From: Promethearchaeum syntrophicum
GTDB lineage: Archaea > Asgardarchaeota > Lokiarchaeia > Sigyniarchaeales > Promethearchaeaceae
Direction of reading: 5' to 3'
DNA length: 32,000 nt
NCBI RefSeq assembly: GCF_008000775.2
Contig: NZ_CP042905.2
Location: 1,080,001 to 1,112,000, forward strand
Shown here: piece by piece, positions 3,630 through 23,222 of the stretch
How positions within the stretch are numbered: position 1 is the stretch's first letter
How the letters are laid out: the number at the start of each line of letters is the position of its first letter
The notes under the pieces: model-generated
What the model was told of the DNA's origin: nothing
What the model saw: only the letters and a program-made list of their open reading frames with translations
Databases searched by the model: none
Made by a program: the position numbers and the translations under genes

Positions 3630-4736
3630 TTACGAATTTCCGGGTAAGTGTATTGCAATTTGGCAGACTTTATCCCCTTTGAGAATTGATTTTATCACTT
3701 TGACTTCCACAGATTTACCAAGAATCCGTTCCCATGTAGATTTATAAAAACCTGCCCCACAATTACAATAAGTTGGGGATAAGGTTTTATCAGGAGTTTT
3801 TAATACATTTCGAATACGAGAACAGTGACAGTAGTTCATCTTTCTTTCCAGATGATTTCCTGCTTCAAAATATCCTTTAATATTAGCAGCCATTTTTGTA
3901 GCATATATGATGTTTCCTTCTTTATAACCTGCCTCTCCCCAGTTATCTGTAAGAATAACATTCATCCATTCTTTTTTTAAATCCATTCTGGCTTTTAATC
4001 TTGTTAAGAAATTTTCTTTCATGAAGGAATGAACTTCATCAATGCTATGATTTTTTTCATAAACATCTTTATATTCTTTAATTCGGGAATCAGGAATTAT
4101 ATGCGCGCATTTGGTGAGAATTTTCCTTTTCTCTTCATCCGTAAATTTTTCGTCCATTTTATCAATTTTATCAATTGTCCAATCTATATTTTCTTCGTCA
4201 GAATAAAGATCCTTAGGATTGATTTCTTCTGGAATTATTTCAATTCTTAATTTGTTTCCTACAATTTCATCGAGATTTTTAGAAAGGAGGTCTCTCCAAG
4301 GATCTTCTGTTTTCAATGGATTTTTCAGATAATATGAATAAAATTCTCTATCGAATGGACTTTGAACAATAATTTTTTCGATATCTAGATGGATTAAACA
4401 AAATAAGGGATCTTCATAAGATGTCCAATACGTATCAAACCAGGTTATTTCTTCAGAAACTTTCTTCTTTAATTTTTCATCTTTAATTATAAACGCTTTA
4501 CCTCGCGCTCTTAAACTTCCTATATTGTCACCTTGCTTTAATGAGAAACTAAATTCAAAATTATTATTTTTCTGAATCTGGTTTACTTTTGACCGAGGAG
4601 TTTTTGTGGTAGTATACCATTTGTTGTTAGAAGGTATTAAGGCCATTATTCTGACCCTAGGTTGATTATCCTCAATGGTTGCAAAATGCATTAAGACATC
4701 TTTTGCCATAAATTCGTAAATTTCTTCCAATAACAT
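3630..4736 (-). CDS. fusion protein: N-terminal pyridoxamine-5'-phosphate-oxidase-like (FMN-binding split-barrel) domain plus C-terminal Cys-rich domain
   Basis: The N-terminus (EEIYEFMAKDVLMHFATIEDNQPRVRIMAL...GSLRARGKAFII) resembles PNPOx/general-stress-protein-26 family proteins. The C-terminus has a CHC...YCNCGAGFY...GDKVCQIAIHL cysteine pattern that I associate with DUF6144/ATC-hydrolase-like domains. That assignment is from memory and was not searched. Confidence 0.65.
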   Translation of the reverse strand: MLLEEIYEFMAKDVLMHFATIEDNQPRVRIMALIPSNNKWYTTTKTPRSKVNQIQKNNNFEFSFSLKQGDNIGSLRARGKAFIIKDEKLKKKVSEEITWFDTYWTSYEDPLFCLIHLDIEKIIVQSPFDREFYSYYLKNPLKTEDPWRDLLSKNLDEIVGNKLRIEIIPEEINPKDLYSDEENIDWTIDKIDKMDEKFTDEEKRKILTKCAHIIPDSRIKEYKDVYEKNHSIDEVHSFMKENFLTRLKARMDLKKEWMNVILTDNWGEAGYKEGNIIYATKMAANIKGYFEAGNHLERKMNYCHCSRIRNVLKTPDKTLSPTYCNCGAGFYKSTWERILGKSVEVKVIKSILKGDKVCQIAIHLPGNS

Positions 4737-4739
4737 TTC

Positions 4740-6485
4740 TTACTTTTTTCCCTTGGACTTCTTCTTTAGAGATTTCTTGAGTTTTTTTAGATCTTTCTTT
4801 AATTTTTTTATTTGTTTTTTATTACCCTTTCTAACTTCTTTATCTGTCGTTTTGATATTTTTGAGATCAACTATTTGCTGTTCAATATTAATAATCTGAT
4901 TTCCAAGGCTATCGAGAATTTCTGCAGTTTTAATAATTTCTAATTTTGCTTTTTCTAATCGTTTTTCTGATTCGATCTTTTCTCTTTCCAATCTTGCTTT
5001 TTCAATTCTTTCGTTTGCCAATCTTGCTTTTTCAATTCTTTCTTTCTCCAATTCCTTAGCTTTCATCTCTTCACGTATTTTTCTCTGGATTTCTTCTTCT
5101 TCCTTCTTTTTCATCTCTTCTTCTTCAATCCCATTTATCCAGAAATTGATTTTTTCCAAATAATCTTTTTTGTCACGTTGATTTAAACCTAAATTTGGTT
5201 TTTGACGTAAAAGATAATTTGCAATTTTGCTCATATCCCACATATAATCCGATTGTAGAATTATTTTTCTAATATTTTCTCTGGCTAAATCGAAGGCTTT
5301 CCCAATTGAGATCATATCGTAATCACCTTCAACAAGAGAATATAGATAGCTAAGAATTTCTTTAATATTTCCTTCTGGTATCTTTGGTAAAGGTTTAATT
5401 TCAACACTATTATGTTTTAGAAAACTTAATTCAAATTTTTCTGTTTCTTCTACAGGTCCACCTTTATAATTAATCGGAATTTTAATTTTTTCTTTCATGC
5501 TGGCGTTATAATCGAATTTTTTTAATTTGGGTGGCTTAACCATCGCTTCATAAAACATTTTTGACTTTCTTTTAAATTTCTCGGGCCATTCTACATCAGT
5601 TTTGAAATTATAATCTGCAGTATTAAAAATTGTTTCAACTGAATCAACTGGGGGAATTTTTTCATCGTCAGGTAGAACCTTTTGAACAAATAGAGAATTT
5701 AATTGATTTGCACTATTTTCTATAATTGAAAATAAATACATTGGGTCAATTTCAACCTTTGAATAAACTTGTTTTAATAATTGTATGTTTAATTTAATCA
5801 AATCAAGATCTTGTTGGGTAAAGTAATCAATTGCAAATATATCAAATCCGTAATCTATGCTTTCTATTCCTGCAGTACATTCAAAATAAGAAGGTTGTGG
5901 AAAATTTTCCATTTTATTTGAGATCAATATTTTATTATAAAATTCAGGATGAGAACTTAACACTTGATGCCCGTATTGGCCTATCTGATAACTATTCGGA
6001 TCACTGATGTATTTCATCATTTCTAGAAATATCTCTTTATTTGGAGTAAAAATATTTCTCATAAGTGCTCCTTTAATAAAGGTTATTGCATTACTGGGTT
6101 TATTGGAGAGATTTAATGGAACTTTGACAATGTTTTCTTTAAAAATGACATCACTTTCATCACTTATGGATAAATTTTTGGATTTTATCATATAGTTAAC
6201 TACAAAATCTGATAGTATGAGTCCAGTCAATTGTTTATGATCTACAATATATTCACCTGGATTAATCTCAAATTTTGTGTAATAATATCCCAAGCCGAAA
6301 ATTAAATGCATTGTTCCGTGTTCAGTCCGTAAAGTGGTTTCTGACCCTGCATAAAAGATTACAACATCGGTATGAATTTTAGATACTTTCTGAGATAAAT
6401 AACGGCCCAAGGTTGGGTAACCCATTAATTCACCCCAACTTGGAATTATAAAAAGATTATTATAAGGAATTATATTTGCACACAT
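4740..6485 (-). CDS. large hypothetical protein with C-terminal K/E-rich coiled coil and poly-basic tail
   Basis: 581-codon ORF with an ATG start. Its stop lies 3 nt upstream of the 3630..4736 start, which suggests an operon. The last ~130 aa are EEEMKKKEEEEIQRKIREEMKAKELEKERIEKARLANERIEKARLEREKIE...KKLKKDLKKLKKSLKKKSKGKK. I do not recognise the N-terminal 450 aa. Confidence 0.7.
   Translation of the reverse strand: MCANIIPYNNLFIIPSWGELMGYPTLGRYLSQKVSKIHTDVVIFYAGSETTLRTEHGTMHLIFGLGYYYTKFEINPGEYIVDHKQLTGLILSDFVVNYMIKSKNLSISDESDVIFKENIVKVPLNLSNKPSNAITFIKGALMRNIFTPNKEIFLEMMKYISDPNSYQIGQYGHQVLSSHPEFYNKILISNKMENFPQPSYFECTAGIESIDYGFDIFAIDYFTQQDLDLIKLNIQLLKQVYSKVEIDPMYLFSIIENSANQLNSLFVQKVLPDDEKIPPVDSVETIFNTADYNFKTDVEWPEKFKRKSKMFYEAMVKPPKLKKFDYNASMKEKIKIPINYKGGPVEETEKFELSFLKHNSVEIKPLPKIPEGNIKEILSYLYSLVEGDYDMISIGKAFDLARENIRKIILQSDYMWDMSKIANYLLRQKPNLGLNQRDKKDYLEKINFWINGIEEEEMKKKEEEEIQRKIREEMKAKELEKERIEKARLANERIEKARLEREKIESEKRLEKAKLEIIKTAEILDSLGNQIINIEQQIVDLKNIKTTDKEVRKGNKKQIKKLKKDLKKLKKSLKKKSKGKK
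4988..5042. repeat. tandem duplication, 30-nt period (25-nt identical core ccaatcttgctttttcaattctttc x2)
   Basis: The identical 25-mer occurs at 4988-5012 and 5018-5042. It encodes the repeated ERIEKARL decapeptide inside the coiled coil of the 581-aa protein. Confidence 0.9.
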
Positions 6486-6631: not shown

Positions 6632-8689
6632 ATGGAAAAAATAAATAACTTTTTTAAATACAAACATTCTGAACTAATTCTTGTTAGCATTATGTTCCTA
6701 TTTTTTCTGGAATTATTTTCTGATTTTGTGGAAAGTGTTTACATTTTCGCTTTGATGACTTTATCGCTTAATGTTAATGTACTATCTGTTCTATTTTTCT
6801 TTACTCCGGTTTTATTGTTATTTTTCAGAAAAAAAGTACCTGATAAAGTATTGTTAATAGTCGGGCTATTAATGGTAATATCAAGAATATTAGAGCCATT
6901 ATTTGATACTACGCTTCGAATGCTTATATCTGGATTGGGAGTAGGATGTTTTATGTTCTATTTTCCCGCATTTCTTTCAAGACAAAAAGTAAACAATGAA
7001 GAAACTACTAGTTATACCTTAGGTATAGGGCTAATTGTTGCACTTTCCATATCAATTTTGTTTAGAACACTAAATTCATCAATAGATATTTCCACTTATA
7101 CTGAGTTTCAGATAGTTGGTTGGATTCTTGGGGGATTAGAAATAAATCTTTTTATTAGACACTATAATAATTGCACTAATGAGAAAGAATCAAGTGAAAA
7201 ATTAGAATCTCCCTCATTAGATTCAAATTCTGAGAACCATCATAAAAAAAAAGGGCGAATATTTGTATATATAATTGGAATATTTAGTATCTTACTGGTA
7301 ATTAATTTTGTTTTTAATGGATCTACTGTACTGGCAAGATGGACTGAAGGAAATTATATTTTTATAACTAGTAGTATAATAATTATATTATGTTTATTTG
7401 CCATTTTGTTACTCTATAAACCAGAACTAATTTTCAATCTAAAACCATATATAATTTATTTGTGGAATGGATTATTTTTTATTTTTCTGGTTGTTACTAT
7501 TGCCGTAAATCAAATATCTTTTCCACATACATTAGATATTTATCCAATCGTGGTTTCACAACCTAAACCATTACAATTATTACCGCTTGCTTTACTAATC
7601 ATTCTAATACCGATCCTATTTATTGATTTTATTTTGTTAATTAGATTATTAATTAAATGCAAACCAACGGTAAAGAAATTAGCTTGGAGCTTTACATTTG
7701 GAGGAGGATTTTACTCATTATTAATGATTTTTGCAATAATCTTCACCTCAACATGGGGATTCGTCCCTCCTGTAAGTTTTTTCTTTAGGGACCGTCTTTG
7801 GTTAGTATTTTTATTTATCACAGGTTGTTTTACCAATTTTAATTGGTTTAGAATAGTAAAAAAGAACCCTTTTATCTTTAAAGATTTAAAATTTGGTAAA
7901 AAAACTAAGAAATCTGCATTAATATTATTAGGAATCATTGGTGTAGGAACTATTGCTGGAGTAATTGCTCTTGAGCCTAGACCTATAGCACAACCAGCAG
8001 GTGCGACTTCATTTAAGATTTTAACATACAACCTCCAACAAGGAACAAATGATAATGCAACTAAGAATTATGATGGTCAACTTGAACAAATAAGAGAGAT
8101 TGATGCAGATGTTATTGGTTTACAAGAATCGAGTAAAATTGCAGGAAATTCCGATGTAGTTCGATATTTTGCTGACAAGTTAAATATGTATTCATATTTT
8201 GGACCAAAAGGAGTCACCGGCACCACAGGTGTCGCTTTGCTGTCTAAATATCCTATTCAATGCGCCAAAACTCTCTATCATTATAATGAAGATTCAGATC
8301 GTAAACAAACTGCAACCATCGAGGCAGAAATTGTGATTGGATCACGAACTTTCACAATATATATTACTCATACTTATGGATCAATGGATGCTAAGAGTAT
8401 GCTTGTAAATGATATTCTCGATAGATCTGTTGATAAAGAAAATGTACTTTTTATCGGTGATATGAATTTTAGGCAATATTCAGAACCTTATAATATAACT
8501 ACTAATGTTTTAGTAGATGCTTGGCTGGATATATGGCCTAAAGCCGTGGATGATAATGGATTAAATGCAAGTCGTAGAATTGATCACATTTTCGTAGATC
8601 CAGATTTAAATATCGATAGTTGTGAATATATTGATTGGATTGAGATTGAATCTGATCATCCTGCCGGGACCGCAGTAGTTTCATGGTAA
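6632..8689 (+). CDS. polytopic membrane protein fused to a C-terminal endonuclease/exonuclease/phosphatase (EEP) domain
   Basis: About 450 aa of repeated TM helices are followed by the EEP motif series: FKILTYNLQQG, DVIGLQES, TIYITHT, FIGDMNF, RIDHIFV, ESDHPAG. Confidence 0.8.
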   Translation: MEKINNFFKYKHSELILVSIMFLFFLELFSDFVESVYIFALMTLSLNVNVLSVLFFFTPVLLLFFRKKVPDKVLLIVGLLMVISRILEPLFDTTLRMLISGLGVGCFMFYFPAFLSRQKVNNEETTSYTLGIGLIVALSISILFRTLNSSIDISTYTEFQIVGWILGGLEINLFIRHYNNCTNEKESSEKLESPSLDSNSENHHKKKGRIFVYIIGIFSILLVINFVFNGSTVLARWTEGNYIFITSSIIIILCLFAILLLYKPELIFNLKPYIIYLWNGLFFIFLVVTIAVNQISFPHTLDIYPIVVSQPKPLQLLPLALLIILIPILFIDFILLIRLLIKCKPTVKKLAWSFTFGGGFYSLLMIFAIIFTSTWGFVPPVSFFFRDRLWLVFLFITGCFTNFNWFRIVKKNPFIFKDLKFGKKTKKSALILLGIIGVGTIAGVIALEPRPIAQPAGATSFKILTYNLQQGTNDNATKNYDGQLEQIREIDADVIGLQESSKIAGNSDVVRYFADKLNMYSYFGPKGVTGTTGVALLSKYPIQCAKTLYHYNEDSDRKQTATIEAEIVIGSRTFTIYITHTYGSMDAKSMLVNDILDRSVDKENVLFIGDMNFRQYSEPYNITTNVLVDAWLDIWPKAVDDNGLNASRRIDHIFVDPDLNIDSCEYIDWIEIESDHPAGTAVVSW

Positions 8690-15502: not shown

Positions 15503-16510
15503 TTGGATAAAAAATACAAAGATTTGAGGGATATTCCGTGGGTAGAGAAATATCGTCCCAAACATCTAAATGATATAATTAGTCAAACTTTAACGGTGCA
15601 ATCATTAAGGAATTTTGTAGAAAAGAAAACTTTACCACATTTAATTTTTGCAGGACCCGCTGGAACCGGTAAAACTTCCACAGCGAGATCATTAATTAAT
15701 GACTTTTTGCAGACCGAGAATAACCGGATTCCTCAAGATTGTATGCTAGAAAAGAATGCTTCTGACGAGGTACGAATGGGAAAACTGGACCAAATTAAAA
15801 ATTTCGTATTTCATCGAGGAATAACCAACGCAAATCATTTTAAATTTGTAGTATTAGATGAAGCTGACAATATTCCAAAAGCGGTCCAGTCTGCTTTCCG
15901 AAGAATAATAGAGATGGCACCTCCTAACGTGAAATTCATTTTTATGTGTAATTTTGTAGAAAAAATAATCGATCCAGTCTTAAGTCGGTGTGCAATATTT
16001 AGATTTTATCCTCTTCCTCGTGCTGGCTTTGATCAAAATATGAAATCAATTGCAAAAAATGAAAAGATCAAGGTTTCCAAGAATGTTTTTGATGCAATTT
16101 ATTATATTACATTAGGCGATATGCGTCTTGCAATAAATTTGTTTCAAATGATTGTAGCTCTTCATGAAGATGAGACATTAGACAGTATTCCAATTAATCC
16201 TGATGTGGTATATGAAATATCTGGGTATTTACCCCAGAAGAAATTGGATGATTTATACAAATATTGTGAATCATTAAATTATGGAGAGGTCCTAAAAATA
16301 CTTAATACTCTTCAAGGATTTTCAAGTCGGGGATTATTTCGCCAAATAATGTCCAAAGTATTAAGTTCTGAGCTAAATTTTCCTGTTAGGGAACGATTGT
16401 TAACTATAATTGCTGAATATGATTATCGATTATCATTAAGTGCAGATCCTCAAATCCAAATTAATGGCTTTTTTGCCAACTTAATCTCTATTTTAGGAGG
16501 AACTGAATAA
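15503..16510 (+). CDS. rfcS: replication factor C small subunit (canonical ATPase)
   Basis: IPWVEKYRPKHLNDI (RFC box II), Walker A GPAGTGKT, NASDE, Walker B VVLDEADN, SRC arginine-finger motif LSRCAIFRF, sensor GDMRLAIN. TTG start preceded by GAGG. Confidence 0.9.
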   Translation: MDKKYKDLRDIPWVEKYRPKHLNDIISQTLTVQSLRNFVEKKTLPHLIFAGPAGTGKTSTARSLINDFLQTENNRIPQDCMLEKNASDEVRMGKLDQIKNFVFHRGITNANHFKFVVLDEADNIPKAVQSAFRRIIEMAPPNVKFIFMCNFVEKIIDPVLSRCAIFRFYPLPRAGFDQNMKSIAKNEKIKVSKNVFDAIYYITLGDMRLAINLFQMIVALHEDETLDSIPINPDVVYEISGYLPQKKLDDLYKYCESLNYGEVLKILNTLQGFSSRGLFRQIMSKVLSSELNFPVRERLLTIIAEYDYRLSLSADPQIQINGFFANLISILGGTE

Positions 16511-16512
16511 AA

Positions 16513-17616
16513 ATGGACGAAAAATCTGATTCTAAAGTAGATTCTCAAAAAATGTATGTTCCAGGAGATTTAATGTCTAGTCCATTATGGAGAATTAAAT
16601 ACCGGCCATTAATGCTTGATTCAATAAAAATCTACTATCCAAAGATATACTCTCAGTTGAAAGGATATTCTAAAGCAGGAAATATCCCACATTTAATTTT
16701 TGTTGGACCTGAAGGAGGAGGAAAAACATTACTGGCTGAATTATTATCACGGGAATTATTAAAATCAGAGTTCTCGATCAATTATAAACTGCTTTTTGCT
16801 GATGATCCTATTGGAAAAACGGAACGTAATGAATCAAATAAACAAGGTAGGATTTCAACTCGTAGAATTGGTTCAGGTGCTGGATCTGTTCGTAGATATA
16901 GGCCTTTTATTCAGATGAGGGTCCGTCCATTTTTATCAAATAGGAAATTCGGGGATGCTCCGTTTAAAATCTTAACAATAAAAAATTTCCATAGATTAGA
17001 TGTCGAACAACAAGCATTTAGAAGATTGATGGAAAAATATTCTTCTAATTGTAGAATCATTATAGTCACAAATAAAATATCTGGAATTATTGATCCAATA
17101 ATTTCACGTTGTCAGCTGATTATGGTTCCTTATTTGCCTTCACATCTTTTCAATAAACTGATTAAATCTATCTGTGAAAAGGAAAAAATCGAAATAAAAT
17201 TAGATACCTTAAATTATTTGAACAAAATAACTCATTTTAATATTGGAAAAGCCTTAGATTTACTACAACTTACCTATTTAACATTTAAATCAATTAATAT
17301 AAACAATCTCTCTAAAATGAAGAGTCAATTGAGTAACACTTTAGTGAAAGATTTATTTATTCAGACTTCTAAAGGAAAATTCCCATTAATTCGTAGAACC
17401 TTGCGCGAAATTTTTAAACAAAAATCCCTCTCAAAGGCTGAAATTTTAGTAGAATTGAGTAGGGTAGTTATACAATTACCATTAGAACGAAAATTGCGCG
17501 TTTTATATCTCGATTTGATAGCAAGAACCGATTTTGAATCTATCGAATCTAATGATGATGAAATTCAACTTAATAAATTACTTTCTCAAATGATGTTAGT
17601 TGGACAGGAGATATAG
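16513..17616 (+). CDS. divergent second RFC small-subunit paralogue lacking Walker B acidic residues
   Basis: WRIKYRP, Walker A GPEGGGKT, SRC motif IISRCQLIMV, and RFC-like QQAFRRLMEKYSSNCRIIIVTN are present. The DEAD position reads KNFH (16981-16992) and NASD reads FADD. There is a ~45-aa Arg-rich insert. AGGAGG lies upstream of the ATG, and the gene starts 2 nt after the rfcS stop. Confidence 0.8.
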   Translation: MDEKSDSKVDSQKMYVPGDLMSSPLWRIKYRPLMLDSIKIYYPKIYSQLKGYSKAGNIPHLIFVGPEGGGKTLLAELLSRELLKSEFSINYKLLFADDPIGKTERNESNKQGRISTRRIGSGAGSVRRYRPFIQMRVRPFLSNRKFGDAPFKILTIKNFHRLDVEQQAFRRLMEKYSSNCRIIIVTNKISGIIDPIISRCQLIMVPYLPSHLFNKLIKSICEKEKIEIKLDTLNYLNKITHFNIGKALDLLQLTYLTFKSININNLSKMKSQLSNTLVKDLFIQTSKGKFPLIRRTLREIFKQKSLSKAEILVELSRVVIQLPLERKLRVLYLDLIARTDFESIESNDDEIQLNKLLSQMMLVGQEI

Positions 17617-17619
17617 AAG

Positions 17620-18966
17620 ATGAGTGAAGCAAAAAAGAGTAATATTCCTTGGGTTGAAAAATATCGTCCACAATCTGCTAAAGATTTAATTGGATTTGAA
17701 AAAGTAATAAATAAATTGAAGCAATTTCTGGATGATTTTTTTATTTTTCAAGCAAAATATCGAAACCTAAGGAAAGAAATTAAAACCATTTCAGACCCCC
17801 CCTTGTTAAAGAAAAAAAAACTCCAGCTTAAATCTTTTCAATTAAAAATGCAGAGGCACAAAGCTCAAATATTAATAGGGCCTCCTGGAGTTGGAAAAAC
17901 CACTATTGTATACGCTCTAGCTAATGATTATAATATGAGTGTTATTGAATTAAACGCTTCAGATGTCAGAACTGAAGATGCGATACAAAATAAATTACAA
18001 GAAACTGTAAAATCTACAAATCTTCTCTCGTTTACGTCAAAAAAATCTAAAGGGAAAATTATTTTAATCGATGAAGTTGATGGGTTACACGGTCAGAGCG
18101 ATCGAGGTGGAGTTAAGGCCCTTGTTAATATTATCGCCCAATCAAAATTCCCCCTCATCTTGACATGCAACTTTCGAGATAAAAAATTAAAATCCTTATT
18201 TGATCTATTAGGTTCTATTGATATCTCTCAAGCCTCAGCCAAAGATATCTCAAAAGTGCTGAGAAAAATATCAAAATATGAAAATCTTGATATATCAGAG
18301 GACCAAATCCATCAGCTTGCAATTGGATCAAATGGAGATTATAGATCTTCAATTAACGATCTCCAAGCTCTCACGCAAAGTAGTCATAGCATTGATGAAG
18401 AGACCCTCAAAAATATTAATATTAAAAGAGATACAGAAACTGAAGTCCAACTTTTCATGAATAATATGTTTGCGACTTATAGAATTAAGGATACAAAAAA
18501 AATAATAGATGATGTTCTTGGACCTGGAATTGATTTCCGGTCAATTCATAAATGGATTAACGAAAATTTATTGTCTTATATCACAAAGAGATATGATTTG
18601 TATTATGCTTTTGAAAATCTTGCACATTCTGATAGAATCCTTGGGTATGTTGGGCGAACTCAAGATTATGCTCATTTAAGTTATTACTTTGATATTTTAG
18701 CTGGAGTTCGGTACGCAAAATCTGATAAAATATTACCAAAAGATAAAAAAGTACGACCTCCAAGATGGTTCAGGACGCGAGCAGTTCCGGATGATGAAGT
18801 TGCTTTAAGTCTTCAAAAACTCTACACACTTTCTTTAAATTCTATTATGAAGGAAATTCGTCCTAATCTAAACTTGTTTCTCAAGTTTCCAATTGGAATA
18901 AAAGAATATCTTGCTTCTGTATTACAGGAAGATGTTAAAAAAATTCCAAAATTGATCGCAAATTAA
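17620..18966 (+). CDS. rfcL: replication factor C large subunit
   Basis: IPWVEKYRPQSAKDLIG, Walker A GPPGVGKTT, VIELNASDVRT, Walker B IILIDEVDGLHGQSDRGG and PLILTCN are the typical archaeal RFC-L pattern. A ~40-aa insert precedes Walker A. The gene starts 3 nt after the preceding stop, with AGGAG upstream. Confidence 0.85.
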   Translation: MSEAKKSNIPWVEKYRPQSAKDLIGFEKVINKLKQFLDDFFIFQAKYRNLRKEIKTISDPPLLKKKKLQLKSFQLKMQRHKAQILIGPPGVGKTTIVYALANDYNMSVIELNASDVRTEDAIQNKLQETVKSTNLLSFTSKKSKGKIILIDEVDGLHGQSDRGGVKALVNIIAQSKFPLILTCNFRDKKLKSLFDLLGSIDISQASAKDISKVLRKISKYENLDISEDQIHQLAIGSNGDYRSSINDLQALTQSSHSIDEETLKNINIKRDTETEVQLFMNNMFATYRIKDTKKIIDDVLGPGIDFRSIHKWINENLLSYITKRYDLYYAFENLAHSDRILGYVGRTQDYAHLSYYFDILAGVRYAKSDKILPKDKKVRPPRWFRTRAVPDDEVALSLQKLYTLSLNSIMKEIRPNLNLFLKFPIGIKEYLASVLQEDVKKIPKLIAN

Positions 18967-19067: not shown

Positions 19068-19679
19068 TCACCAAATATCATAATAATGTTGAATAAAATC
19101 TAATGAAGTGTTAGGCCCTTTAGATATATTATTCCAATCAATTGGGATGTATTTACAATCAGGATCGCTTTTTAATGCATTGAAACCTTTTGTAGATAAA
19201 GAAACACCTCTAGGATTTGTTCCTGATTTAGGTTTATTCAGAAATTCTGATTTGAGTTTTTTTCGAATTTTCTGTAGTAATTCAATTGAAAAATAATAGA
19301 GTCCCCCAACAGATTTTTGAAAGATTAAAAGAATTATTGGATATTTTGGGGTGAATTCTTCATAGAATTTAATAGCAAGTTCATAATTACTTGTCCATAT
19401 TAATTTAAAGCTTTTTGAGATACTAGTTTTAAAAGAAATCAATTCATTAAATAAGATAAAATCAGCTTCAGCTTCTTGAGGAGGTAATTTATCAGAGAAA
19501 TTATCTCCAAAATGTTTTGAAAAAATGCCTATTATCATCTTTTCTCTTAGAGTTCCAATATCTGGGGATAATTTTCCATCTTTTGCAAAAGCATTATTTA
19601 AATCGTAGATATATTTAGGAAATCTATTTTGAATTTTTTTTATAAATGTTTTGTCATTGAATATATCATTAAAGCTCAT
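19068..19679 (-). CDS. putative type II restriction endonuclease (PD-(D/E)xK-like candidate)
   Basis: It is the last gene of a co-oriented cassette behind two MTase-family genes. A possible nuclease core is EAEADFILFNELISFKTS (D...E/S-x-K spacing). The call rests on context plus this weak motif only. Confidence 0.4.
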   Translation of the reverse strand: MSFNDIFNDKTFIKKIQNRFPKYIYDLNNAFAKDGKLSPDIGTLREKMIIGIFSKHFGDNFSDKLPPQEAEADFILFNELISFKTSISKSFKLIWTSNYELAIKFYEEFTPKYPIILLIFQKSVGGLYYFSIELLQKIRKKLKSEFLNKPKSGTNPRGVSLSTKGFNALKSDPDCKYIPIDWNNISKGPNTSLDFIQHYYDIW

Positions 19680-19745: not shown

Positions 19746-20585
19746 TTACCATTCAAAGAAAATATTCATATTTCTATGATTTTGTGCAAATTTCATAAAA
19801 TCACGATTAATATTTGGAAATATATATAATATATTATCTTCAACAAAGGAAAATAGATGAATAAATCTTTGAATATAATCTGTAATTTCCTTGGATTGAA
19901 TAAGAGTTTCATCATTTTTTAACATTAACTCATTATTATATCGCCAAATTGATTTTGTATATGTTAAAAATTGATCACGAGTAATGGTATCTGTTTTTTC
20001 AAATGCTTTCCTTTTATTTTTTTTAATCCGTTTTAACACATCTTTACTTGAAATAAGTGCAATATTTAGATTAGAATTTAAGTTATCAAGGGATTTTTCA
20101 AAATTCTTATTAGGAATATTAAGAATTACATTTCCCCTCATAATCATATCACTATTAATCAGGATTTTAGTAATTTTTGCATGAAGGGGATAAAATTGAG
20201 AATTTTTGACATTTTTATCAATATGATTATTTACAAGAATTATTAAGCGCCCCCCTGTTATCAAAAATTTTCTTAAAATCTTTATTGTTTTTACAATTTC
20301 TTGAAACCATTTATCAAAATTTTCAAAGATATCTTTATCAATTTGCGGGATTTGAACAATTATAAGATGTATACTTTCATCTATAATTTTTTTAGCATTT
20401 ATTTCATTAAATTTTAAGACTTCATTAAATATTTCTTTTGAAATTTCTGCTGATCTATCAATAACTTCTTTTTTTTCATTTATAATAAAACCATCATATA
20501 ATCTAGATGAGTAAAATTGACGCGAATCATGCCCCTCTCTTTTAGATACTCCAAAATCACTTGTTTTGGTACGATTTCTTGACAT
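19746..20585 (-). CDS. DNA-methyltransferase-like paralogue with ablated catalytic and SAM motifs
   Basis: It aligns by eye along its length with the neighbouring MTase: DESIHLIIVQIPQ vs DESIHLMVTSPPY; ITGGRLIILVNN vs IPGGIVALNIAN; SIWRYN vs NLWAFG; FSFVEDNILYIFPNINRD vs FSEENDIILDPFMGSGST. It remains an intact 279-codon ORF in a very AT-rich region. Confidence 0.65.
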   Translation of the reverse strand: MSRNRTKTSDFGVSKREGHDSRQFYSSRLYDGFIINEKKEVIDRSAEISKEIFNEVLKFNEINAKKIIDESIHLIIVQIPQIDKDIFENFDKWFQEIVKTIKILRKFLITGGRLIILVNNHIDKNVKNSQFYPLHAKITKILINSDMIMRGNVILNIPNKNFEKSLDNLNSNLNIALISSKDVLKRIKKNKRKAFEKTDTITRDQFLTYTKSIWRYNNELMLKNDETLIQSKEITDYIQRFIHLFSFVEDNILYIFPNINRDFMKFAQNHRNMNIFFEW

Positions 20586-20610
20586 TTTGATTTTTCACTT
20601 TTTATTCGGA

Positions 20611-21615
20611 TTATTTAAGATAGGATAATAAGTTATTCTGTATTTTTCGTTTCTTCTTTGATTCTGAAGTAATTGTCTCTTCATTCCTTTTGATAACTTG
20701 GGTTAATTTTTTAGGAAATGGGAGTGGTTCAATTTGATTAGGCTTTAGATTTCCTTTCTTTAATTCTTCTTTGATTCTCTTTTTTTCTTTTCTTTCCCTC
20801 TTTATTCTTATTTTTTTCTTTTCTGGATGATAATATTCATCAATTCTTCTTTCACAATTAGCAATATACTGATGATTTATTTCATAACCAACGTACCTTC
20901 TCTTAGCAATGATGGCAGCAAGAGCAGTTGATCCAGATCCCATAAAAGGATCTAAAATAATATCATTTTCTTCAGAAAACATTAGAATAATCTTATATGG
21001 TAGTTCTACCCTAAAAGGTGCAGGATGATTAACCCTTTTTGCGCTTTCAGTTCCAAATGCCCATAGATTTGTTAATAATTCTTCTTCATTAATTTCCACT
21101 TTTTTATCATCAATTTTTTCAGGAAATTTATTGATTCTTCCTTTTGGAAAATGAATTACTTTTCTATCTAAATCAGGTTTTCGAGCAATAATAATATATT
21201 CATGAACATCTCTTAAAGAAGGGTTTGATGCTGATTGCCAACTACCCCATGCACAACTTCCACCTGCACTGGCGGCTTTATCCCATATGATTTCTTGTAT
21301 TATTTCAAAATGTAATTTTTCAAGGATTTCAATAAAATAACAATCTAAAGGAAGATATGGCTTTCGTCCAACATTAGCTATATTCAATGCTACGATACCT
21401 CCCGGAATTAAAACCCGAGAGATTTCTTTATGAACTTCTTCAATAAAATCTAAATATTCTTTTAAATTCAAGTTTTCATCATATTGTTTTGTTACATTAT
21501 AGGGTGGTGATGTCACCATTAAATGGATAGATTCATCTTTTAATTGTGTCATTTTTCGAGAATCTTGACAATAAATTTTATTCCACAATGAATCTTGAGC
21601 TTTCAATAATTTCAA
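20611..21615 (-). CDS. beta-class N4-cytosine/N6-adenine DNA methyltransferase with C-terminal basic tail
   Basis: Motif IV TSPPY (21499-21510) precedes motif I DPFMGSGST, which is the beta-class order of the N6_N4_Mtase family. SPPY is most often seen in m4C enzymes. A ~70-aa K/R/E-rich tail ends in KKKRKIQNNLLSYLK. A TTG start at 21615 is needed to retain the conserved WNKIYCQD segment. Confidence 0.85.
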   Translation of the reverse strand: MKLLKAQDSLWNKIYCQDSRKMTQLKDESIHLMVTSPPYNVTKQYDENLNLKEYLDFIEEVHKEISRVLIPGGIVALNIANVGRKPYLPLDCYFIEILEKLHFEIIQEIIWDKAASAGGSCAWGSWQSASNPSLRDVHEYIIIARKPDLDRKVIHFPKGRINKFPEKIDDKKVEINEEELLTNLWAFGTESAKRVNHPAPFRVELPYKIILMFSEENDIILDPFMGSGSTALAAIIAKRRYVGYEINHQYIANCERRIDEYYHPEKKKIRIKRERKEKKRIKEELKKGNLKPNQIEPLPFPKKLTQVIKRNEETITSESKKKRKIQNNLLSYLK

Positions 21616-21854
21616 TTCCAGTTTTTTTTATATTTATCAAAGATTTTATTTTTTTAATAATTTCACCATTAATAAATGATATTACAGAACTAAATTATTT
21701 AACGTATGTTTTAATTCGAAATTATTAGAAATGCAACTTGAAATATTTTTCGAACTTTCGATAAATTTGTATCGTGTTTTCTAAATAATTTTTTTTTTTT
21801 GGGAGAAGAGGATACAACTACAAGTTGACTTTACTTTATGATACTCCAAAAGAA

Positions 21855-23222
21855 CTAGTCTTGGAGCTTTTTCGGGATGTTTTTTTTTTGATCACCATTA
21901 TTTTTTCCCCTTTTTCTCTCTATAAATATTGCAAAAAATAACATTATTAACCCACCTAATGTGATAATAGCAGATATAAGAAATGCAAATTTATAAGCAT
22001 TATTTTCTGGTATTCCATCTGCTATTAATCGATCTATTAATGGACCAATAACAAAAGTCGATCCTATTCCCCATGATAGAAAAAAAGTGGCATTATAAAC
22101 CCCAAATAATCGTCCTCGTTTTTCTTGAGGTATTAATAAGGATGCTAATGCATAAGATGAAGTCATTATTAAAACTTCAGCAGCCCCCCAGATAAATCTT
22201 CCAACATACATTAATCCTAAACTTGTTGTTAGAGCAATGATAATTAAGTAAATTACTGCAAAAAAGGAGCTTATTACTAAAGTTTTCCTAAGTCCAACTT
22301 TGTTAGTTAATTTTCCCGCTATAAAACCTATTAGAATTATAGCTATTCCTCTGGTGTTTGAAATAAAACCTAATGTTAATGGATCTACTGCAAAACCTGA
22401 TTCCAACACCAAATATTGGCTGAAAGGTATGGCAATTGAATTTCTGCCTACATTTATTATAAAAAGAGCAGCTATATAAGATAGGAATACAACATAAGAA
22501 AATTCCGGTGAATTTGTCGACTCTCCTGAACTGAAATTATTTTTAATTTCTGGATTGTTCCACGATCTTTTTGCTCCCCCTTCAGGTACAAGAAAAAGTA
22601 TAGGAATAATGGAAGTAATCATAATTGCAGCTGCGATAAAAAAAAGTGGTCCTTCTTTAAAACCATACCCATCATATTTAAGTCCATACCCATCGTAGAA
22701 AACTCCTCCGATTAAAACCCCCACTATTTGACCAATTCCTCCTAAACTTGTTAATCTTCCCATAGCTTTACTTCTTTTTTTTGGGGAAAAAATATCACTA
22801 ACTAATGCACTCCAAGCGATATTTGACATTGACCAGAAGAATTCGATAATAGATAATCCTATAATAACAAAGTAACCCGCTAACTGAAGATCTGCAAAAG
22901 TGTTATGAACAAAATACACAATAACTATACCAATACCCGCTGAAAGCTCTCCAATTACAATAAAAATCCTCCGTTTTTGGATTTTATCGGTTAAAGGACC
23001 CCATACGAAATTTTGAGCTACTACGCTTAAAATCATAGGAATTGTCGCAAAAAGAGTTGTGGCAGTTACAGATAAATTGAGAAAAAATCTCAAGTATAGA
23101 GATAAATAGGTGTAAAATAAGCCCCGTCTAAACATAGCGAGAATCTGAAACGACGATAACCCTAGAAATATACGTTGTAACACGTTTTTGTTTGATTTTA
23201 ACTCTTCATTCATTGTTTTCAT
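21855..23222 (-). CDS. MFS transporter
   Basis: About 12 TM helices and the MFS motif A-like GPLTDKIQKRRIFIV between TM2 and TM3. Confidence 0.85.
   Translation of the reverse strand: MKTMNEELKSNKNVLQRIFLGLSSFQILAMFRRGLFYTYLSLYLRFFLNLSVTATTLFATIPMILSVVAQNFVWGPLTDKIQKRRIFIVIGELSAGIGIVIVYFVHNTFADLQLAGYFVIIGLSIIEFFWSMSNIAWSALVSDIFSPKKRSKAMGRLTSLGGIGQIVGVLIGGVFYDGYGLKYDGYGFKEGPLFFIAAAIMITSIIPILFLVPEGGAKRSWNNPEIKNNFSSGESTNSPEFSYVVFLSYIAALFIINVGRNSIAIPFSQYLVLESGFAVDPLTLGFISNTRGIAIILIGFIAGKLTNKVGLRKTLVISSFFAVIYLIIIALTTSLGLMYVGRFIWGAAEVLIMTSSYALASLLIPQEKRGRLFGVYNATFFLSWGIGSTFVIGPLIDRLIADGIPENNAYKFAFLISAIITLGGLIMLFFAIFIERKRGKNNGDQKKNIPKKLQD

Follow-up and report, generated by a model that had tools for sequence, protein, structure and literature searches.

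A putative PCNA-interacting peptide at the C-terminus of a restriction-modification DNA methyltransferase in Candidatus Prometheoarchaeum syntrophicum

Several archaeal enzymes of replication and repair, among them Fen1, the large subunit of replication factor C (RFC), PolB, PolD DP2, RNase HII, NreA and Hef, are clients of the sliding clamp PCNA and carry a C-terminal peptide of the QxxLxxF type on a flexible extension with basic flanks. Classic examples of such PCNA-interacting peptides (PIP boxes) are QATLFDFL in Pyrococcus RFC-L and QSTLxxWF in Fen1. In eukaryotes the DNA methyltransferase (MTase) DNMT1 is brought to the replication clamp by a PIP-type peptide, which gives replication-coupled maintenance methylation. 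The present study concerns an MTase gene in a stretch of 32,000 nucleotides (contig NZ_CP042905.2, positions 1,080,001 to 1,112,000, hereafter the window) from Candidatus Prometheoarchaeum syntrophicum, an Asgard archaeon (Lokiarchaeia). Its product shares with the archaeal clients the C-terminal peptide, the flexible extension and the basic flanks, but here the carrier is the methyltransferase of a restriction-modification (R-M) system instead of a replication or repair enzyme, and the motif is found in only part of the family. We propose, with moderate confidence and from sequence comparison, that this enzyme is an R-M methylase tethered to PCNA through its PIP-like C-terminal peptide. The literature searched revealed no prokaryotic R-M methyltransferase bearing a PIP box or clamp motif, in agreement with the preliminary description of this DNA, whose author was aware of no clamp-coupled R-M methylase in prokaryotes.

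With DNMT1 the proposed system has the concept in common, a DNA methyltransferase recruited to the clamp through a PIP-type peptide, and on the following comparison the resemblance is one of analogy and not of homology. The catalytic domain of DNMT1 is a C5-cytosine MTase while the window enzyme is an unrelated beta-class amino-MTase, the motif is N-terminal and internal in DNMT1 but C-terminal here, and the purpose is epigenetic inheritance in the one case and protection from a cognate endonuclease in the other. The relatives by descent are instead found in PF01555, where M.PvuII, TTHA0409 and the rotifer N4-cytosine MTase (N4CMT) share with the window MTase the order of motifs (IV, then I), the SPPY and FxGxG sequences and the fold. 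The solved beta-class relatives have no such tail, whereas the window MTase has a 72-residue extension with a PIP-like end.

The gene, an open reading frame (ORF) at 20611..21615 on the reverse strand, encodes 334 amino acids (aa), and the product is identical (100%) to the Ca. Prometheoarchaeum syntrophicum protein QEE15745.1, the annotation of which is 3 residues shorter. The catalytic core (residues 1–262; 20830..21615, reverse strand) was delimited with Pfam, AlphaFold2 (AF2) and Foldseek. The Pfam family PF01555 (N6_N4_Mtase) spans residues 30–252 (E 2.8e-44), motif IV (SPPY) is situated at residues 36–39 and motif I (DPFMGSGS) at 222–229, and the final core helix stops near residue 262 (...CERRIDEYY). 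By sequence the closest solved relatives in the PDB are TTHA0409 and the rotifer N4-cytosine MTase. An AF2 model based on a 50-sequence alignment gave a predicted template modelling score (pTM) of 0.80 with a confident core, and its best Foldseek matches were N4CMT 8s9o (E 9e-19) and TTHA0409, with E values ranging from 1e-18 to 1e-16. The protein is an intact N4/N6 DNA methyltransferase of the beta class and, since both motif IV and motif I are present, it looks active.

Downstream of the core a tail of 72 aa follows (residues 263–334, positions 20614–20829), confirming the approximately 70 extra residues reported in the preliminary description. The tail starts with a basic helix (residues 264–286, PEKKKIRIKRERKEKKRIKEELK; 20758..20826, reverse strand), predicted by AF2 with a predicted local distance difference test (pLDDT) of about 95, and continues in a variable linker of about 35 residues (287–319; 20659..20757, reverse strand), predicted to be disordered from its low pLDDT and low identity. 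A direct reading then gives the basic cluster KKKRK (residues 320–324; 20644..20658, reverse strand) and, one residue before the C-terminus, the PIP-box-like motif QNNLLSYL (residues 326–333; 20617..20640, reverse strand). The reverse complement of 20611–20640 is cag aat aac tta tta tcc tat ctt aaa taa, i.e. QNNLLSYLK and a stop, exactly as first read, and it is preceded by the codons AAG AAG AAA CGA AAA ATA, so that the complete end is KKKRK-I-QNNLLSYL-K. The C-terminal peptide proposed to interact with PCNA is KKKRKIQNNLLSYLK.

The assignment of a PIP box in the preliminary description, at the extreme C-terminus with a basic flank, could be reproduced in that Q326, L329, Y332 and L333 match the consensus Q-x-x-[LIM]-x-x-[FY]-[FYL], with KKKRK in front of the motif and a single residue after it. 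The Gln at position 1 (Q326) is also found in the orthologues P0002, P0003, P0004 and P0009, while the aliphatic residue at position 4 (L329) and the aromatic residue at position 7 (Y332) are invariant in all five motif-bearing orthologues. The cluster KKKRK has the same sequence as the core of the nuclear localisation signal (NLS) of SV40 large T, and eukaryotic PIP boxes are frequently flanked by NLS-like basic clusters; in this tail it is probably merely an electrostatic flank. In the AF2 model the pLDDT is 35–44 over residues 300–327 and a short helix is formed by residues 328–333, consistent with an exposed, disordered terminus able to form a short helix. As modelled, this architecture is the anatomy expected for a docking peptide on a flexible leash. 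Two other C-terminal or clamp-related motifs were considered by inspection only and rejected; for the proteasome HbYX motif the Tyr would have to be penultimate, while that of the MTase tail is at -3, and the APIM motif [KR][FYW][LIVA][LIVA][KR] is absent.

When comparing the closest orthologues it was found that P0002, P0003 and P0004 (82–85% identical) end in QNNLLSY[LI][KE] and that P0009 (70% identical) ends in QSKLLSYIK on a shorter and unrelated linker. Among the four closest orthologues, mean pairwise identity was highest in the eight residues of the motif (0.94), followed by the core (0.89) and the basic helix (0.81), and lowest in the linker (0.41), which also contains indels. Within the motif the codons differ synonymously (TTA/CTA, TCC/TCA, CTT/CTA/TTA and CAG/CAA), with ATT as a further variant beside CTT/CTA/TTA. 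In these orthologues, an identity of 94% in the motif against 41% in the linker, together with the synonymous codon changes, is what would be expected if a short linear motif were under selection at the end of a disordered tail. The basic cluster is present in the orthologues as KKKRK, EKKKK or KSKKT, and in the basic helix the sequence HPEK[KR]K..R[LI]K is kept in 13 out of the 13 closest homologues, including those without the motif. A homology search with residues 236–334 alone gave no matches, probably because of their low-complexity composition, and a scan of metagenomes revealed no additional close orthologues bearing the long tail.

Endings of a similar kind recur in the wider family. 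The 50 nearest homologues, which according to their source names are mostly from Promethearchaeota, Harpocratesius, Hodarchaeales and Heimdallarchaeota, contain xxx[LIM]xx[FYW] in the tail in 21 cases, typical Asgard endings being KKTLDSFI, KKTLDVFI, SKTLDAFL, TKTLEAFL, NTTLDSFL, QSSLDKFL, KNSLLNFI and APKLTDF[LM]. Position 7 in these variants is F or Y, and the endings of the form xTLDxFL look like the classic archaeal PIP boxes. Forms such as KKTLDSFI, SKTLDAFL, QSSLDKFL and APKLTDFL are similar to QxxLxxFx, the consensus for archaea in PMC7776575. The regular expression for the hydrophobic half of the motif was matched 16 times compared with 1.6 in shuffled tails, and none of 2000 shuffles reached 16. 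In a neighbour-joining tree of the cores the PIP-like tails are distributed over at least seven sub-clades, interleaved with proteins that are tail-less or merely basic at the end. A library of representatives at 50% identity, coarse and rich in fusions and truncated entries, served for motif enrichment only. Among 78 taxonomically labelled genome loci, two fusions being left out, Q..[LIM]..[FYW] was found in the tails of 5 out of 16 archaeal but 0 out of 62 bacterial proteins (Fisher p 2e-4), and next to a gene for a ThaI-like endonuclease, the restriction partner described below, it was found in four out of four archaeal (Promethearchaeum, two Thermoplasmata lineages and Methanosarcina) versus none of nine bacterial cases (p = 1/715), although these enrichment tests ignore the kinship among the sequences and the p-values overstate their independence.

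Besides this dependence among the sequences, a number of observations weigh against PCNA tethering. Position 8 has no second aromatic residue but L333 (I in P0003 and P0009), a departure from the strict eukaryotic form only, as the archaeal consensus QxxLxxFx leaves this position free (PMC7776575). The orthologues P0005 (87% identical and at the same RFC-adjacent locus), P0006 and P0008 are complete genes that stop right after the basic helix and run directly into the downstream gene, and in P0007 the motif is shortened to the ending QTDLAL; the preliminary description expected a functional tail to be shared by close orthologues, which proved true of P0002–P0004 and P0009 but not of these four. 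Because P0005, P0006 and P0008 are complete without it, the motif is, to judge from the genes, dispensable and patchily distributed, having been lost or never gained in close relatives. Most of the other Asgard variants lack the Gln and have K, T or S at position 1, and one bacterial homologue, from Atribacteria, fits the PIP expression with QNVLPLF. In short-tailed homologues no more than about 10 residues separate the motif from the core, against which it could be packed. Moreover, hemimethylated sites are normally already shielded from type II cleavage, and the selective gain from tethering is therefore not obvious.

The last of these points concerns chance, which the preliminary description had also raised. 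With a model taken from the amino-acid composition of the 28 ORFs of the window, the motif has a probability of 1.5e-4 per position and 4.6e-4 per protein over the last three registers, and about 2 C-terminal matches would be expected by chance in a proteome of ~4,000 proteins. Matches anywhere in the 28 ORFs numbered 3 compared with 1.4 expected, and one of these, QIQINGFF, belongs to the folded domain at the C-terminus of a small RFC subunit. A single instance of the motif is by itself no more than chance; it is by being conserved in those orthologues that carry it that the motif rises above it. When 97 distinct ORFs of the window and the Asgard loci were compared, these MTases were the only ones with the motif in their last 14 residues.

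The MTase gene (M) belongs to a cassette. Downstream on the same strand it is followed by a 279-aa ORF (19746..20585, reverse strand), here called pseudo-M, and by a gene for a 203-aa type II restriction endonuclease of the ThaI family (19068..19679, reverse strand), matched by Pfam PF15514 with an E value of 6.6e-30 over profile positions 1–187 of 203. Orthologues of this endonuclease adjoin the same MTase family in 13 other genomes (4 archaeal and 9 bacterial). From the gene content the cassette is a type II R-M system of three genes (M, a catalytically dead M paralogue and a ThaI-like endonuclease) in which the MTase is the active methylase, an arrangement that differs from the beta-class and ThaI relatives in the inactive paralogue inserted between M and R. 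Because of the SPPY motif and the ThaI family membership, the product is probably N4-methylcytosine (m4C) in CGCG, if the endonuclease cuts CGCG like ThaI. The 32-kb window does not avoid CGCG, as it might if restriction were active; 15 sites are present compared with 12.2 expected.

Pseudo-M was recognised as a catalytically degenerate MTase paralogue from BLASTP (E 3e-4 against M), phmmer (about 1e-20 against active relatives) and its AF2 fold, and has no Pfam match. The SPPY sequence is replaced by QIPQ and DPFMGSGS by YIFPNINR, while the AF2 model has the beta-class MTase fold (TTHA0409, E 4.5e-11). Its family consists of 31 'hypothetical proteins', found in Promethearchaeota only and always beside the M gene, with many invariant residues and a strongly conserved N-terminus (T.T..FGVSKREGHD..FY) but without conservation of motifs IV and I. 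In one orthologue, P0297 of Harpocratesius sp. (L007, 6819–7745), the N-terminus consists of a low-complexity repeat (TQ/TK/TR)n of about 50 residues which is unique among the orthologues. In two cases, L011 (3938–5788) and L012 (868–2679), from Ca. Harpocratesius repetitus and another Promethearchaeota metagenome-assembled genome, M and pseudo-M are fused into a protein of about 600 aa without the PIP-like motif. Pseudo-M is thus likely an inactive partner subunit of M, and from the gene fusion and the gene order we infer an M/pseudo-M heterodimer. This would resemble METTL3-METTL14 and the ciliate MTA1c, where an active MTase is likewise accompanied by a paralogue that has lost its catalytic and S-adenosylmethionine motifs and yet is under selection; the natural fusions of M and pseudo-M fit this parallel, and both MTA1 and METTL3 appear among the distant structural matches of the M and pseudo-M models. 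The Asgard pair, as a putative complex, differs in its prokaryotic R-M context and in belonging to PF01555 and not MT-A70.

A function of the C-terminal peptide as a short linear motif would not in itself point to PCNA, as conservation of the motif gives no indication of the receptor, and the partner could instead be pseudo-M, the ThaI-like endonuclease, in which case the peptide would adjust the M:R balance, or some other DNA-associated protein. M and pseudo-M are a conserved pair, fused in two genomes, and the tail would be well positioned as a tether between them. We nevertheless regard a different receptor as unlikely, since PIP-like ends are found where pseudo-M is lacking (L031, L041, L048 and P0078, including Thermoplasmata and Methanosarcina) and where the ThaI gene is lacking (L006, L007 and L008), and are missing in the pseudo-M-bearing M proteins L013, L014, P0005, P0006 and P0008. 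The presence of the motif is thus independent of both pseudo-M and the endonuclease, the tail is unlikely to be a tether to either, and a tether to pseudo-M in particular is disfavoured. The split between archaea and bacteria is furthermore what a domain-specific receptor such as PCNA would predict.

The peptide might also have no specific function and be a chance match in a fast-evolving low-complexity tail rich in K, N and L, its apparent conservation being due to recent kinship. The two matches per proteome expected by chance, the slight excess among the window ORFs with one match buried in a folded RFC domain, the close orthologues that drop the motif while keeping the gene, and the fact that the exact form QxxLLSY is confined to five sequences would all agree with this. 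It is quite unlikely, however, to account for a motif that changes its codons synonymously beside a linker full of substitutions and indels, for P0009, which retains the motif on an unrelated linker, or for similar endings that recur across the sub-clades, roughly 10 times as often as in shuffled tails. As for the tail as a whole, it could be a non-specific DNA-binding extension that aids site search or processivity, with the terminus as the end of an amphipathic element. Within the tail it is the basic helix that is conserved universally, also in the motif-less orthologues, and many homologues bear just a short basic tail. Such an explanation leaves the conservation of the uncharged Q-N-N-L-L-S-Y-L and the recurring L..F[LI] spacing unexplained and is likewise quite unlikely as the full account, although DNA binding by the tail is compatible with tethering to PCNA and does not exclude it.

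If the peptide does bind PCNA the following mechanism may be envisaged, in which we infer PCNA binding, the heterodimer, the target sequence and the coupling to replication. The segment KKKRK-I-QNNLLSYL-K would be the PCNA-interacting peptide, its Q, L and Y-L residues plugging the hydrophobic pocket beneath the interdomain connector loop of PCNA and the flanking lysines contributing electrostatic affinity. Docking would tether M/pseudo-M to PCNA clamps remaining on newly replicated or repaired DNA, the basic helix probably contacting DNA or the partner, and the presumed CGCG targets, which are rare (15 in the window, or about one in 2 kb), would receive their methyl groups while the duplex moves past and ahead of any access by the endonuclease.

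The cassette is located next to a clamp-loader operon, three consecutive upstream genes (15503–18966, forward strand; 335, 367 and 448 aa) encoding RFC subunits, and the preliminary description noted this adjacency as a possible coincidence. The operon matches the eukaryote-like RFC complex of Lokiarchaeales, with extra RfcS paralogues and RfcL (PMC12680538). No PIP box was identified in the C-terminus of RfcL (...KKIPKLIAN; QEDVKKIPKLIAN), unlike in typical euryarchaeal RFC large subunits, so that RfcL offers no positive control within the window, whereas the 335-aa small subunit contains the perfect match QIQINGFF mentioned above, 11 residues before its end and within the Rep_fac_C domain. 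The adjacency holds only for the nearest relatives L001, L004 and L104, where the cassette is inverted compared with the window, and more distant PIP-bearing homologues are not beside RFC. When analysing the region between RfcL and the gene for a major facilitator superfamily (MFS) transporter, a site of rearrangement appeared. In L001 it contains a 300-nt duplicate (83%) of the 3' end of RfcL (2547–2846 and 4359–4658), and an additional methyltransferase (307 aa) and an ORF of 113 aa are also located there. A 61-nt repeat (4305–4365 and 7555–7615) is shared by the 5' end of the additional MTase and the MFS gene at its 3' end; a matching 56-nt repeat is present in the window (20539–20594 and 21834–21889). 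Through these repeats of 56–61 nt the MFS gene is linked, at its 3' end, with the N-extended MTase and pseudo-M genes at their 5' ends, and from such scars of nested insertions the site is, on the sequence, a hot spot of insertion and rearrangement. The three RFC genes do stand beside the cassette, but a functional link between the MTase and the RFC operon is not supported, given the restriction of the adjacency to near relatives, the differing orientation of the cassette and the repeat scars. Elsewhere in the window, a 581-aa ORF (4740–6485, reverse strand) that is not matched by Pfam has a C-terminal tail rich in lysine and strongly repetitive (...KQIKKLKKDLKKLKKSLKKKSKGKK).

In lower-identity members of the family, probably from bacteria and phages, another type of ending was found, QEMLF, QEYLF, QTFLF, QPSLF, QLSLL, NESLF, DESMF and QDELLL (loci L016–L089; P0166, P0175, P0186, P0254 and P0266; L107, 2832–3563). 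The pattern Q..[LM]F occurs 8 times compared with 0.5 in shuffles, with taxonomy assigned for few of these sequences. P0175 is encoded on a contig that looks phage-like, with numerous small ORFs on the same strand. These ends, which often come directly after the last core helix, resemble the motifs of bacterial beta-clamp clients (QL[SD]LF or QxxLF) and may be a counterpart of the archaeal PIP box, so that clamp tethering may be general in the family. A wider proposal would be that sliding-clamp tethering is recurrent throughout the beta-class family in both prokaryotic domains, with PIP-like ends directed to PCNA in archaea and QxxLF-type ends to the beta clamp in bacteria and phages, that replication-coupled methylation, to date a feature of eukaryotic DNMT1, arose repeatedly in prokaryotic R-M and orphan methylases, and that Lokiarchaeia employ for it an active/inactive heterodimer reminiscent of METTL3-METTL14; this we put forward tentatively, as a possible though rather unlikely generalisation.

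A survey of archaeal R-M systems lists 10 N6-methyladenine and 7 m4C MTase genes in the single Lokiarchaeota genome that it covers, and its Table 2 has no entries for Asgard in the columns on methylation data (PMC10609329). Should the tail bind PCNA, no prokaryotic DNA methyltransferase before this one would have been shown to ride a sliding clamp, and the archaeal PCNA toolbelt would gain a new class of client. R-M systems could then secure their self-protection by tying methylation to DNA synthesis, a DNMT1-like logic carried out with an unrelated enzyme in the archaeal lineage closest to eukaryotes, and competition on the clamp between methylation and Okazaki-fragment processing would be predicted. 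The 15-residue peptide and its natural deletion variants offer a simple handle on the timing of methylation in restriction, and pseudo-M deserves attention in its own right, as the partner in a prokaryotic counterpart of METTL3-METTL14.

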